Positions 27,045 to 49,409 of a stretch of DNA of 64,000 bases are shown here, one piece after another. Position 1 is the stretch's first letter, and every line of letters begins with the position of its first letter. Below the pieces are notes generated by a model. It saw only the letters and a program-made list of their open reading frames with translations, was not told the DNA's origin and searched no databases. The stretch is from sequence record NC_050154.1. One strand, given 5' to 3'. Origin of the DNA: Escherichia phage D6. A program made the translations under genes and the position numbers.

Positions 27045-27067
27045 TTGGTTTTCTAACACAAATCATT
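27045..27067 (+). promoter_or_regulatory. candidate C1-type operator (TTTCTAACACAAA)
   Basis: Member of a recurring TGTGTTAGAAA family; directly upstream of the ATG at 27074. Confidence 0.5.
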
Positions 27068-32765: not shown

Positions 32766-34427
32766 ATGAGTGAGGCAGAAGCCCGCCCGACTAACTTTAT
32801 TCGTCAGATCATCGATGAAGATCTGGCCAGTGGTAAGCACACCACAGTACATACCCGTTTCCCGCCGGAACCGAATGGCTATCTGCATATTGGTCATGCG
32901 AAATCTATCTGCCTGAACTTCGGGATCGCCCAGGACTATAAAGGCCAGTGCAACCTGCGTTTCGACGACACTAACCCGGTAAAAGAAGATATCGAGTACG
33001 TCGAGTCGATTAAAAACGACGTTGAATGGTTAGGTTTTCACTGGTCTGGCAACATCCGTTACTCCTCCGATTATTTTGACAAACTCCATGCCTATGCTGT
33101 TGAACTGATCAACAAAGGCCTGGCGTATGTTGACGAACTGACGCCGGAACAGATCCGCGAATACCGCGGCACCCTGACGCAGCCGGGTAAAAATAGCCCG
33201 TACCGCGATCGCAGCGTTGAAGAGAACCTGGCGCTGTTCGAAAAAATGCGTGCCGGTGGTTTTGAAGAAGGTAAAGCCTGCCTGCGTGCGAAAATCGATA
33301 TGGCTTCGCCGTTTATCGTGATGCGCGACCCGGTGCTGTACCGCATTAAGTTTGCTGAACACCACCAGACTGGCAACAAGTGGTGCATCTACCCGATGTA
33401 CGACTTCACCCACTGCATCAGCGATGCGCTGGAAGGTATTACGCACTCTCTGTGTACGCTTGAGTTCCAGGACAACCGTCGTCTGTATGACTGGGTACTG
33501 GACAACATCACCATTCCTGTTCACCCGCGCCAGTACGAATTCTCGCGCCTGAATCTGGAATACACTGTGATGTCCAAGCGTAAGCTGAACCTGCTGGTGA
33601 CCGACAAGCACGTTGAAGGCTGGGATGACCCGCGTATGCCGACCATTTCCGGTCTGCGTCGTCGTGGTTACACTGCTGCTTCTATTCGTGAGTTCTGCAA
33701 ACGCATCGGCGTGACCAAGCAGGACAACACCATTGAGATGGCGTCGTTGGAATCCTGCATCCGTGAAGATCTCAACGAAAATGCGCCGCGCGCAATGGCG
33801 GTTATCGATCCGGTGAAACTGGTTATCGAAAACTATCAGGGCGAAGGCGAAATGGTCACCATGCCGAACCATCCGAACAAACCGGAAATGGGGAGCCGTC
33901 AGGTGCCGTTTAGCGGTGAGATTTGGATTGATCGCGCCGATTTCCGCGAAGAAGCTAACAAGCAGTACAAACGTCTGGTGCTGGGTAAAGAAGTGCGTCT
34001 GCGTAATGCTTATGTGATTAAGGCAGAACGCGTCGAGAAAGATGCCGAAGGTAATATCACCACCATCTTCTGTACTTATGACGCCGATACCTTAAGCAAA
34101 GATCCGGCAGATGGTCGTAAAGTCAAAGGTGTTATTCACTGGGTGAGCGCGGCACATGCGCAGCCGGTTGAAATCCGTTTGTATGACCGTCTGTTCAGCG
34201 TGCCGAACCCAGGTGCTGCGGATGATTTCCTGTCGGTGATTAACCCGGAATCGCTGGTGATCAAACAGGGCTTTGCTGAACCGTCGCTGAAAGATGCGGT
34301 TGCGGGTAAAGCATTCCAGTTTGAGCGTGAAGGTTACTTCTGCCTCGACAGCCGCCATTCTACGGCGGAAAAACCGGTATTTAACCGCACCGTTGGGCTG
34401 CGTGATACCTGGGCGAAGTTAGGTTAA
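32766..34427 (+). CDS. glnS: glutaminyl-tRNA synthetase, host-like
   Basis: 553 aa with class I HIGH motif and VMSKR (KMSKS) motif; full-length match to E. coli GlnRS as I recall it; the upstream leader ends in TTTACGCTTTGAGGAATCCACA as in the E. coli glnS leader. Confidence 0.97.
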
Positions 34428-46518: not shown

Positions 46519-46803
46519 TTATGGTTGCTGTAAGTGGAGGGGAACAGCCTGTTCTATCATCTCGCGTATCAAGCCAACTTCAAGTAGTTCCTCGTATTCC
46601 CAGTATCTGTTTGTCACCAGATCCAGGCTGGCTATGACCTTGTGCCGGTCATTCGGCATAGCCAATTTTTCTGCTATAACCATCAGTGAAAACTCTTCAT
46701 CCAGTAGAATTTGATAGCAGTTTTTTGATAGTTCCACTTCCCTTATGAGACTGAAACGTCGCTGGATTGTGGCAGCAGAGTAAGTGAAATCTATTTTCTT
46801 CAT
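46519..46803 (-). CDS. hypothetical protein
   Basis: 94-aa ORF. Confidence 0.45.
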   Translation of the reverse strand: MKKIDFTYSAATIQRRFSLIREVELSKNCYQILLDEEFSLMVIAEKLAMPNDRHKVIASLDLVTNRYWEYEELLEVGLIREMIEQAVPLHLQQP

Positions 46804-46862: not shown

Positions 46863-47804
46863 TTAACTAACAATCCAGTCCGTAGCAACAACATCCTCTG
46901 GAGCTAAATCAATCGCATGGATTTTCCCATCCCGGATAGTGCGCCAGTGCTTTCGTGATCCACCTTCGGGCCACACCCATACACCTTCAGGCCAGGATGC
47001 TCGACGGCATACGATTGCATAGCCTGTTTTAATCCTCTCTCTGGCGGTATGCAACGACAGGTTTGCCTTTGGACTTTCAGGCACAGGATGGTGGATTGCC
47101 TGAAACATCCCCATCTTTGGATGATACCAGCGTTTATTGCGTGGTTCTGCCTCCGACATCACCTGCTTAAAGGCTTTCCGGAAGGGGGCCAGGGCCACAA
47201 TGGAGCGTTGCGCAAGCAAACCATCGGGAGTTAAAAACTCATGCGTATCGGTGGGAATCCGGTAAGCGTTAACCAGGTTTCGGCATTTGGCTTCAGTCAG
47301 GCCACATTTCGCCGCCAGCTGGCGGTAGCCAATGTAGCCTTCCGGAATATTGCCTTTCTTTATTTGCTCGAGTGTTTCAGCGACCATCGATACTTGTGCT
47401 GATACCTCGGCTACCTGGGCATTTACGGCGTTGATCCGGCGTTCATGCTCAAGATGCATTTGCGCCATTTCAGCCAGAATTTCGGCTTTTGATTTTAACT
47501 GTACCCGGGCATTCTCCAGTTCGCGCCAGCGGTCCACCAGCCGGGCGGTGAATTCGGGAGAGAGCTGCGCGACGACAACAATGCTGTCTCGTTTGCCTTG
47601 CTCGCCTTCGAAGACATAGACCGGATCTTTGACAACCTTCCCTAAGTTATTGATTCTTTCGACGAACTCATTTTGAGTTTCTCGGATGACACCGCTAGCC
47701 ATCATATTGCGAATGGTACGTAAAACATTGCCGTGACGACTACCAACTAACTCTGCAATATCTAGGCTACTCATTGTCGCTTTTTGAGAGATGGACAGAT
47801 TCAT
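46863..47804 (-). CDS. antirepressor-like protein (Rha/Ant-type N-terminus)
   Basis: 313 aa; N-terminal SSLDIAELVGSRHGNVLRTIRNM; sits downstream of an icd-like ORF and a c4-like RNA. Confidence 0.55.
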   Translation of the reverse strand: MNLSISQKATMSSLDIAELVGSRHGNVLRTIRNMMASGVIRETQNEFVERINNLGKVVKDPVYVFEGEQGKRDSIVVVAQLSPEFTARLVDRWRELENARVQLKSKAEILAEMAQMHLEHERRINAVNAQVAEVSAQVSMVAETLEQIKKGNIPEGYIGYRQLAAKCGLTEAKCRNLVNAYRIPTDTHEFLTPDGLLAQRSIVALAPFRKAFKQVMSEAEPRNKRWYHPKMGMFQAIHHPVPESPKANLSLHTARERIKTGYAIVCRRASWPEGVWVWPEGGSRKHWRTIRDGKIHAIDLAPEDVVATDWIVS

Positions 47805-48019
47805 CAGCGCACCTCCACGCAGTTCATCGGCAGATTCCAGTAATTGAGGATCTCCATCGCATCAAGAGTGAAGCGAGCAGCAAAAATGCAGGGTTCTTCG
47901 GGAAGGTATGAGCGCGCCTCTGATTCGGTAGCAGCCATGACGCAGATATACAGGTGCTTTTGGCAGGAATAGAAACGCCAGATAAATTCAGAATGAGTTG
48001 GGGTAGGGATAGTAGCCAT
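47804..48019 (-). CDS. Icd-like small protein
   Basis: 71 aa, stop overlaps the ant-like start; AAAAGGAGG RBS. Confidence 0.45.
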   Translation of the reverse strand: MATIPTPTHSEFIWRFYSCQKHLYICVMAATESEARSYLPEEPCIFAARFTLDAMEILNYWNLPMNCVEVR

Positions 48020-48079
48020 ATTGGCAGCCTCCTTTTGCTAATTTAAGGAGCTACCGCGTGAGGTCTCAATCTCAATGGC

Positions 48080-48155
48080 GGTAGCACTGGCTGGGTTGAG
48101 ACTACCGGCGCAAAAGGGAACCGGCCTGCCTTTCGGCAGCCCAGCCAGCACTACC
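48080..48155 (-). ncRNA. candidate c4-type antisense regulatory RNA (~76 nt)
   Basis: 16-bp closing stem with two G-U pairs enclosing a GAAA-looped hairpin; a loop GUCUCAA is complementary to two UUGAGAC sites, one just before the icd-like RBS. Confidence 0.4.
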
Positions 48156-48206
48156 ATTGATCTTGGAGCTATACGCTACGTATGGCTGTGCGATGGCATG
48201 ACACAA

Positions 48207-48228
48207 AAAAAGACGCTTTCGGCGTCTG
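48207..48228 (-). terminator. intrinsic terminator upstream of the c4-like RNA
   Basis: Minus strand GACGCCGAAAGCGTC followed by TTTTTTT. Confidence 0.6.
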
Positions 48229-48817
48229 TGTCGCCTTTTGCATTATCCGGGGTCTCAATCCCGGCACCCGTTTTTCTAAGGTGCCGTAGAAATATACCCC
48301 ACGATAATGCCAGGGCGCAACAGTCAGTATTTTATGCTTTGGCGGATTTCTTCCGGGCTTGCTTGCAGGCGTAGGCCATTGCTTTAGCTTTCACTTCATC
48401 CAGCTTCCCGGTGATCACTTCTTTTCCGAGAGTGACAAACCAGTCATAGCAACCGCCAGTGATGTTCTGGATTTGAAAGTTGAGGTAGCGAACTGTCATT
48501 TTGACCCCCCCAGCGCGAGTAAAGAATGCAGATTATCGCGTGAGTGGCGGACAACGAGTGATGGGAAAAGACAGTAGCTGTTCATAGTGTAGTGACTCCT
48601 TGCTTTCGGAGCCGCCATCGACTGTTCCACGGTCTGGTGGCGGCGCAATAAAGGCTGGAACACCGTGAGTCAACGGGGGCTTTTCAGCCACCTATATTGC
48701 ACCGCCATAGGTATAGCGGCGGCAATAATACGAAAAACTAAACAGTTTGTCTCAAAAAGTTGACCGGTGTGCCAATCGGTAGTGAATGTACATCGGAGAA
48801 ATTTACAATTCAACTTA

Positions 48818-48839
48818 AAATGTTAGAAAACTAATTTAT
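48818..48839. promoter_or_regulatory. candidate C1-type operator upstream of the immI-like unit
   Basis: AATGTTAGAAAACTAATTTAT, 17/19 identical to the motif at 62787; overlaps the ref-like stop. Confidence 0.5.
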
Positions 48840-49409
48840 CAATTCAATCGCCATCTGATACAACGTCATTTCATCGGCATTGTGCCGCATGAAATCTGCT
48901 TTTCCGCCTATTTTTCCGTCAGCATGAACAGGGACCAGCCAGGGATATTGTTCTCGGACCTCGGCTGGCGCTGCGTACTGGTGGTGCCATTTACACAAAG
49001 GGAGGACATATTTATGCGCGTTCTCTGCCGTTCTCCCGAAGATATGGTGCAGGGATACCACTGGGCTATGTTGCCCGTGAATATGGCAGGCAATGCAGGG
49101 GAGAGCACCGATAGCGGTCTGTATCCGGCGTTCATCGGCTGTGAGTGATCTGCCTTTCAGGCCGCGTGACGTGCGTGTTTTTTTGGACGGAGCGGATACA
49201 GCTTTATCTTTTCTCCGCTGTTCATATTGCTTTGCTTTTTCAATTTTCTTTTGCCGATATTCAGGCGATGCGGCTTTTTCTCTCGCTCGCTGCTGCTGGC
49301 GTTGAGCTTGTTGAAGGCACTTTGCCCTTTGTTCCTCTCGCCAGGCTGGGTCAGCCAATTTTTGCATGGCTTTTTGTCTCTGTTTCTCCCAATAGCTCTG
49401 TTTCTGCAT
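48831..49409 (-). CDS. HNH-type endonuclease with Lys/Arg/Gln-rich N-terminal extension (P1 Ref-like)
   Basis: 192 aa; CIACHIHGQHSPVVSLHHIFGRT...LPLCKWHH; operator-like motif ~60 bp upstream. Confidence 0.55.
   Translation of the reverse strand: MQKQSYWEKQRQKAMQKLADPAWREEQRAKCLQQAQRQQQRAREKAASPEYRQKKIEKAKQYEQRRKDKAVSAPSKKTRTSRGLKGRSLTADERRIQTAIGALPCIACHIHGQHSPVVSLHHIFGRTAENAHKYVLPLCKWHHQYAAPAEVREQYPWLVPVHADGKIGGKADFMRHNADEMTLYQMAIELIN

Follow-up and report, generated by a model that had tools for sequence, protein, structure and literature searches.

Which regulatory system occupies positions 46863 to 48840 of Escherichia phage D6? The question concerns a 64,000-nt stretch of the phage record NC_050154.1 (hereafter, the window), in which an earlier note, made from the sequence alone, had picked out a module of operator, c4-like RNA, icd-like gene, and antirepressor-like gene resembling the immI region of phage P1. 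The present analysis puts the probability that this minus-strand locus is a P1-type immI antisense-RNA switch on a D6/P1-like phage-plasmid at roughly 85%. RNA family membership, fold, two-part complementarity, covariation, Icd homology, and gene overlap are directly observed. A full-length Rfam C4 match, a homologue of P1 Icd, and covarying loop-target pairing bear out the original assignment, and the minus strand bears all the elements that the note listed, though a few details need correcting. All features of the locus described below lie on that strand.

The C4 antisense RNA lies at 48074..48161, where the Rfam family C4 (RF01695) matches from the first to the last model position (1-87 of 87) at 76.0 bits, above a cut-off of 45. 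Its 76-nt core (48155..48080) is built, as first described, from a 16-bp closing stem (48155..48140 with 48095..48080) that encloses two hairpins, and the minimum-energy fold of -49.1 kcal/mol (z = -6.3) agrees with the Rfam model. At curated cut-offs, Rfam finds exactly two RNAs in the 64-kb window, C4 and isrK, and both fall inside the interval 46863-48840. Two unpaired elements of C4 carry the recognition code. The b' element (CCUUUUGC, 48117..48110) sits within the 12-nt loop of hairpin 2, and the a' element (GUCUCAA, 48102..48096) occupies the unpaired multiloop junction between the 3' side of hairpin 2 and the closing stem. The earlier note had read GUCUCAA as a loop complementary to two UUGAGAC sites; the complementarity stands, but the element belongs to the junction rather than to a hairpin loop. 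In plasmids related to the window, the Prokaryotic Genome Annotation Pipeline (PGAP) annotates a 39-aa 'ash family protein' coding sequence across the C4 gene (window 48044..48163; L001 7244-7363). This reading frame was rejected as a real gene, as NCBIfam gave no match for it here, and the annotation is probably a protein mis-call of the C4 RNA gene.

Upstream of C4 lies an isrK-type leader (48206..48284), which matches the Rfam isrK family (RF01394) over model positions 1-77 of 77 at 59.1 bits, against a cut-off of 50. The leader comprises a hairpin, a second hairpin that displays a1, a single-stranded b1, and an intrinsic terminator. The a1 element (UUGAGAC, 48258..48252) lies in the loop of the second hairpin, and b1 (GCAAAAGG, 48241..48234) follows 10 nt past a1. 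A terminator scan places the terminator stem at 48227..48211, followed by a U run, at the 3' end of the isrK match. Both this terminator and a hairpin displaying a second target site upstream of it had been recognised from the letters. Beyond C4, complementarity and covariation delimit a target region on the icd mRNA (48028..48069). There, a2 (UUGAGAC, 48069..48063) begins 4 nt past the end of the Rfam C4 match, and b2 (GCAAAAGG, 48038..48031) overlaps the icd Shine-Dalgarno (SD) sequence AAGGAGG (48034..48028), with the icd ATG at 48019. The UUGAGAC site that had been placed immediately before the icd ribosome-binding site is present but lies 28 nt upstream of the SD; b2 covers the ribosome-binding site instead. 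The a element of the code had thus been found, but the b element (CCUUUUGC/GCAAAAGG) had been missed.

At the window locus, a' pairs at 7/7 positions and b' at 8/8 positions with both the leader and the icd-side sites. The UUGAGAC 7-mer alone is not enriched, with 8 copies in the window against 7.8 expected. For the combined pattern TTGAGAC-N(5-35)-GCAAAAGG, 0.01 occurrences are expected in the 64-kb window but three are present: a1b1, a2b2, and the plus strand of C4's own a'/b' region. Folded without C4, the icd SD is predicted to lie inside a local hairpin (GGUAGCUCCUU / AAGGAGGCUGCC; 48020..48075), and a2 is predicted in the loop of a small hairpin.

Is the pairing kept where the sequences change? 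Seventeen loci with the leader-C4-target layout were compared, drawn from D6-like and P1-like plasmids, JL22, RCS47, 673R5, Stx phages, phiP27, a Vibrio plasmid, and Gifsy-1. The a1, a', and a2 elements pair at 7/7 positions in 17/17 loci, across 8 different a sequences. Pairing of b elements, of which there are 6 types, is complete (8/8) for b1/b' in 15/17 loci and for b'/b2 in 14/17; the exceptions are a decayed copy in pSa1423-90k, the b2 of the Vibrio plasmid (6/8), and an alignment shift in Gifsy-1. When a'-a2 and b'-b2 are treated as pseudoknot pairs, 97.6% of alignment cells are paired and 30 pairs are changed on both sides. The corresponding a1-a' and b1-b' version gives 98.2% of cells paired and 31 pairs changed on both sides. 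The covariation score is reached by none of 500 shuffles, and slid partners leave 32-50% of cells paired. In the same alignment, the 16-bp closing stem has 9 pairs changed on both sides with 99.6% of cells paired, and hairpin 1 covaries in 4/5 pairs. The check that the earlier note had proposed, folding and covariation across homologous loci, supports both the stem and the loop-target pairing. The b2 element overlaps the SD in every full-length locus.

Close relatives reveal how the code changes. Although RCS47 shares 94% identity with the window across the cassette, its b', b1, and b2 have all changed together (UUUUGC to UUUGAC; GCAAAA to GUCAAA). The a and b sequences of the window locus recur unchanged in phage JL22. 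Two a types (GAGAC and GGAAC) and two b types (GCAAAAGG and GUCAAAGG) are found among cassettes 92-96% identical to that of the window, and each of their four possible combinations is represented, the carriers being the window and JL22; RCS47; pFORC64.1; and pRHB38-C13_3 and pHeN100_02. The D6-like plasmid pRHB38-C13_3 has the same locus as the window, but both its a and its b elements differ. The concerted change of three sites at each change of code, seen over 8 a codes, 6 b codes, and 17 loci, amounts to a clean natural experiment. A distinct immunity specificity had been predicted from the unlikeness of the RNA and its targets to those of P1; a and b do differ from P1, but the code is not unique to this locus, since JL22 shares it.

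The SD and first codons of the downstream gene (GGAGGCUGCCAUUAUGGCUACUAUCCC, encoding MATIP) are kept across loci despite a different downstream gene, namely icd in the plasmids and a 215-aa Rha gene in Stx phages. This pattern suggests a boundary of cassette recombination inside the first codons after b2.

The genes behind the RNA fit the same module. The 71-aa icd-like gene (47804..48019), already named as such in the earlier note, matches NCBIfam NF033153 (phage_ICD_like) at 50.3 bits, against a cut-off of 25, and its product is 63% identical to P1 Icd (E = 1.5e-26). PGAP labels the same open reading frame (ORF) 'Icd-like' in near-identical plasmids. The next gene (46863..47804) encodes a 313-aa putative antirepressor of the Rha/Roi family, with a Pfam Phage_pRha domain at residues 11-98. 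Its start overlaps the icd stop by one base (TGATG, 47806..47802). The protein matches phrog_63 ('anti-repressor Ant') over its full length (6e-61) and is 62% identical to the Rha protein of a second module on the related E. coli plasmid NZ_CP027309.1. The description of this gene as antirepressor-like holds to the extent of the PHROG match; the protein is of the Rha/Roi family and has no BLAST similarity to P1 Ant1. An antirepressor role is inferred from its position and its PHROG family label. No significant match to the protein was found among solved structures. Downstream of the antirepressor gene, a 94-aa ORF (46519..46803) belongs to phrog_7349; in some relatives, its PGAP label is 'transcriptional regulator'. 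This ORF may be part of the same operon.

How would these parts work together? P1, whose c4/icd/ant mechanism has been summarised (PMC8198154), and Gifsy-1 supply by analogy the processing, polarity, promoter use, operator binding, antirepressor target, and leader decoy role that are proposed here. Transcription would start near 48284, from a promoter that directly precedes the leader, and probably at upstream promoters too, the most distal of which lies beside an operator-like 17-mer. Most transcripts would end at the leader terminator and yield a short isrK-type RNA carrying a1 and b1. Read-through transcripts would contain C4, which would be excised as a stable species of ~76-80 nt; in the P1 precedent, RNase P makes the 5' cut. 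The excised RNA would offer two single-stranded elements, b' in the hairpin-2 loop and a' in the junction, for pairing with a2 and b2, either on its own transcript or on sister ones, and with b2 covering the SD, icd would stay untranslated. The antirepressor would be silenced along with icd because its start overlaps the icd stop, through lost translational coupling and, as in P1, through Rho-dependent polarity. In a lysogen, the C4 pool would hold the antirepressor off and silence incoming genomes with the same a/b code, which would underlie immunity specificity. Once C4 has been titrated or can no longer keep pace, Icd and the Rha-family antirepressor would be made and the primary C1-type repressor would be inactivated. 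The terminated leader RNA most likely titrates C4 through a1 and b1, as IsrK does experimentally in Gifsy-1.

By analogy, the Gifsy-1 data are the closest experimental evidence on the behaviour of the window's leader and RNA. IsrK is the primary transcript of a promoter at the position equivalent to that upstream of the window's leader, and read-through past the IsrK terminator is processed to the ~80-nt RNA STnc1160 (PMC4825925). When supplied in trans, IsrK pairs with the STnc1160 region and raises AnrP translation 114-171-fold (PMC4825925). Hfq binding by IsrK and its trans activation of an antirepressor have been shown only for Gifsy-1 (PMC4825925). Rfam places isrK at 34316..34240 of the Gifsy-1 locus (L014 34131..34329), an overlapping c4-a1b1 match that passes its cut-off, and C4 at 34214..34131 with 69 bits. 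The C4 match covers most of the orf45 (STnc1160) of the IsrK study. Judged by these matches, the Gifsy-1 IsrK locus is a c4-type module without icd, of the same class as P1 c4. The isrK and c4-a1b1 models describe one kind of leader, since both pass, overlapping, in Gifsy-1. Like the window, Gifsy-1 has an isrK leader, then a C4-family RNA, then an antirepressor gene with b2 on its SD. Unlike the window, it is an integrated lambdoid prophage rather than a plasmid prophage, it has no icd, its antirepressor gene directly follows the RNA, AnrP is unrelated to the 313-aa protein, and its C4 region was read by the authors as a translated 'orf45'.

Several observations weigh against a P1-type immI switch. 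In tblastn searches, the 313-aa protein falls in the Roi family, its named phage relatives being Roi/Rha DNA-binding proteins, and BLASTP against P1 Ant1 returns E = 1.2, that is, no similarity. The leader scores 21.7 bits against the Rfam c4-a1b1 model (RF03163) at 48297..48244, short of the cut-off of 46.7. The proximal promoter has a weak -35 element (TTGCGC) and is missed by a consensus scan, and the C1-type repressor gene lies outside the window. In the predicted fold of the whole precursor, the icd SD is already hidden, such that C4 pairing may not necessarily be the sole block to translation.

The Gifsy-1 experiments also raise the question of which RNA is the regulator. The locus might act mainly as an IsrK-type activator switch, in which leader RNA accumulated under stress acts in trans by pairing with a'/b', either in C4 or in the long transcript, and opens the mRNA, making the leader the regulator and C4 the lock. 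This is a serious contender, if at somewhat less than even odds: the window's leader passes the isrK cut-off, the a1-a' and b1-b' pairs covary as well as the a2/b2 pairs, and in Gifsy-1 the increase in anrP translation came with compensatory mutants that supported pairing with the Rfam-C4 region. Such activation complements C4 repression and does not exclude it, however, and if only leader-C4 pairing mattered, the conserved a2/b2 over the SD would be left without a role. The window also differs from Gifsy-1 in having icd between C4 and the antirepressor gene. Another model for the output is the immunity system of satellite phage P4, in which a small RNA processed from an untranslated leader pairs with sites that flank it (CI, seqA, seqC). 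Pairing in P4 ends transcription prematurely and involves neither icd nor an antirepressor. The authors of the IsrK study likened the Gifsy-1 system to P4 CI RNA and raised this mechanism for STnc1160 (PMC4825925). The window offers target sites on both sides of C4, like seqA and seqC around CI, and an intrinsic terminator between a1/b1 and C4. Termination in place of a ribosome block is nevertheless unlikely here, given that b2 on the icd SD in all full-length loci points to a P1-style translational block, that the terminator scan finds no terminator-like structure between a2 and b2, and that constitutive STnc1160 did not lessen the IsrK effect in Gifsy-1.

The genes themselves permit a reading as a type I toxin-antitoxin-like pair for addiction or abortive infection, with Icd as a division toxin, C4 as its unstable RNA antidote, and the Rha/Roi protein as an unrelated regulator. 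P1 Icd does inhibit host cell division (PMC8198154), and the downstream protein is Roi/Rha-like, not P1 Ant-like. Stx phages and Gifsy-1 carry the cassette directly before the antirepressor without icd, however, so the design can do without this gene; in P1 and Gifsy-1, RNAs of the C4 class are processed and stable, and the one-base overlap of icd stop and antirepressor start ties the two genes together. An addiction pair is accordingly a poor prospect, and still less probable is that the locus is a decaying remnant without current function. Decay does occur among relatives: the Rha gene is truncated in pE2863-2, p99_1145-4, and pAPEC201603, and pSa1423-90k is without the leader terminator and b2. 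The upstream module, too, has probably lost most of its icd. In the window's main module, by contrast, both ORFs, the SD, all six pairing sites (7/7, 8/8), and the terminator are intact, and 86 complete E. coli genomes retain the 2.9-kb locus over at least 80% of its length.

The P1-type immI switch can be compared part by part with its models. Annotated P1 has the order Oc4, P2c4/P1c4, a1 b1, c4, a2 b2, and icd overlapping ant1, and the window has the same order and an RNA of the same Rfam C4 family. Recognition in both uses two elements, with a1/b1 in the leader, a2 4 nt past c4, and b2 on the icd ribosome-binding site. The likeness to P1/P7 immI extends to a homologous Icd (63% identity), to a downstream gene overlapping the icd stop, and to a dispersed, asymmetric 17-bp operator-like motif beside the distal promoter-like site. 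The code is different, reading UUGACAG + GUUAGUGA in P1 and UUGAGAC + GCAAAAGG here, so the window module should not respond to P1 or P7 c4. The leader in the window belongs to the isrK type, has a stronger terminator, and fails the c4-a1b1 model; its terminator and hairpin are those of a known isrK-type leader, the functional counterpart of the P1 a1/b1 leader. The window further differs from P1 in that its downstream gene is of the Rha/Roi family and not an Ant1/2 homologue, the P1 C1 operator consensus is absent, and an extra C4-like unit lies upstream. In JL22 and RCS47, where the cassette lies between pacB and c1, the RNA cassette is 94-96% identical to that of the window and the code is the same in JL22; the cargo differs in being a P1-Ant1-like protein, and the b code of RCS47 differs. 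Stx phages share the architecture at ~70% identity, but their cargo is a 215-aa Rha protein whose gene opens with the same MATIP codons, and icd does not form a gene of its own. Just downstream of Rha in Stx-type phages, Rfam reports matches to sRNA-Xcc1 (79.6 bits; L010 2516-2599, L011 2515-2598).

What drives the module? Three promoter-like sites and one operator-like motif precede C4 or its upstream counterpart. The proximal site (TTGCGC-18-TATATT, 48291..48320) lies directly upstream of the leader and would start transcription at ~48284. The equivalent position is occupied by TTGACT-17/18-TATATT in Stx phages, and RCS47 and JL22 have a promoter upstream of isrK. The distal site (TTGAAT-17-TACATT, 48785..48813) was read from the sequence 7 nt downstream of the operator-like 17-mer. 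This putative promoter matches 8/12 consensus positions, under the scan threshold, and the pattern TTGAnn-17-TAnATT is kept in a Shigella dysenteriae plasmid (L027), in a further variant (L028), and in front of the second module. Between them, the promoter scan finds a promoter-like GAGACA-17-TATTAT (48725..48753) in front of the upstream C4-like unit, conserved as GAGACA-17-TAnnAT in L027 and L028. A third UUGAGAC (48755..48749) was considered as a C4 target and rejected: it is without a nearby b partner, and it is invariant in pRHB38-C13_3 and L028, whose a' is GUUCCAA, and so does not covary with a'. The site is explained as part of the conserved GAGACA-17-TAnnAT promoter-like sequence.

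The operator-like motif named in the earlier note corresponds to the 17-mer AAATTAGTTTTCTAACA at 48821..48837, where it overlaps the stop codon of ref. The window contains 6 copies of its 9-nt core TTTCTAACA where 0.76 would be expected, a count reached by none of 100 shuffles, and the 33-kb remainder of NZ_CP027309.1 (L003) contains 7 where 0.25 would be expected. The copies share flanks, giving the 17-mer consensus AAATTAnTTTTCTAACA, and lie at 27050, 36957, 48821, 49479, 53571, and 62789 in the window and at 867, 10770, 11812, 13061, 13217, 22460, and 23871 in L003. They include copies upstream of a c1-like gene, of both c4 modules, and of the operon divergent from ref, and the 17-mer is kept in L027 and L028 despite diverged surroundings. 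A first, degenerate motif (TTNCTNANATTTTNAG) was set aside, its exact matches standing only in front of the two c4 modules; the dispersed family emerged with the shorter core TTTCTAACA. Even with as many as 3 mismatches allowed, the P1 C1 operator consensus ATTGCTCTAATAAATTT matches nowhere in the window. From its distribution, the 17-mer is probably the operator of a D6-type C1 repressor and distinct from the P1 consensus.

A second C4-like RNA lies upstream of the module, at 48633..48712. It scores 40.2 bits (E = 1.3e-5) with Rfam C4 under relaxed thresholds, below the cut-off of 45, and folds at -36.2 kcal/mol (z = -3.6); its short b'-like loop reads UGACUC, and its a'-like junction reads GUUCCAG. 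Covariation evidence comes from three variants only (window, L027, and L028), among which differences in the closing stem preserve pairing. Its candidate targets stand directly 3' of it in an a2/b2-like layout (48593..48629): UGGAAC at 48629..48624 and GAGUCA at 48598..48593, the latter overlapping the SD AAGGAG (48601..48596) of a 29-aa leader ORF (48496..48585). The pattern TGGAAC-N(10-40)-GAGTCA occurs once in the whole window, at this place. The 29-aa ORF is probably an icd remnant, because the Shigella dysenteriae plasmid L027 has, after the same RNA, an intact 61-aa Icd-like gene at this position, and then the 55-aa ORF that follows here. No relatives of the region around the upstream RNA were found in phage records; it is present in 119 plasmids, 117 of which are non-mobilizable.

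The stop of the 29-aa ORF overlaps the start of the 55-aa ORF (ATGA; 48332..48499). The earlier note had seen this small ORF correctly, but as a 56-aa frame; it encodes 55 aa, from 48499 to 48332. The product belongs to phrog_7786, to which PHROG assigns an unknown function, and has only a sub-threshold match to Pfam DUF3319. A large protein search groups its homologues into 16 clusters with no named function, most of them on ~90-kb contigs, the size of D6-like plasmids. An AlphaFold2 model of the protein, with a predicted local distance difference test (pLDDT) score of 79, has no fold match in PDB at E <= 0.001.

How widespread is the locus? The window belongs to a ~90-kb plasmid prophage of the D6/P1-like kind. 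A region of 2.9 kb around the locus, which in the E. coli genomes noted above is retained over most of its length, is 99.9% identical to the Salmonella plasmid CP111090.1 and 98% identical to NZ_CP027309.1. Most of the latter plasmid is collinear with the window in reverse orientation, and its gene content includes pacA/pacB, tail sheath, phd/doc, RepB, ParM, and tRNA genes. The gene upstream encodes a Ref-family nuclease (ref, 49409..48831), and the c4, icd, and Rha genes lie downstream of ref on the same strand. The RNA cassette itself has matches in 128 phage records and 458 PLSDB plasmids. Two c4/icd regions per D6-like plasmid have already been reported, and GenBank record LC710660, with the Stx-phage form of the architecture, already carries an 'isrK Hfq binding RNA' beside a 'C4 antisense RNA'. 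The module is an ordinary, widespread, and already described immunity element, recognised by existing Rfam and NCBI models. What the present analysis adds is the missed b element, the reshuffling of codes at the population level, and a further C4-like unit that scores under the Rfam cut-off; new here are that RNA (48712..48633), with its own targets, and the dispersed operator-like 17-mer. A complete antisense-RNA circuit is recoverable by careful reading of raw sequence.

The second module of NZ_CP027309.1, outside the window (L003 973-2157), contains c4-a1b1, C4, icd, and a Rha paralogue, and its RNA and a/b code are identical to those of P1. The identical code predicts cross-talk of D6-like plasmids with P1 at the level of immI. 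A tentative extension, doubtful at present, is that the three C4-class RNAs, with mutually orthogonal two-part codes, form a layered network, in which the terminated leaders would be sponges that set the threshold of induction and recombination among near-identical cassettes would shuffle the a and b elements into new immunity types. If so, the upstream C4-like RNA would gate the 55-aa protein, and the third unit, with its P1-identical code, would confer cross-immunity with P1. Close plasmids mix a and b freely, a pattern to be expected if new immunity types are selected for among phage-plasmids that circulate together, many of them with resistance or virulence genes on board.

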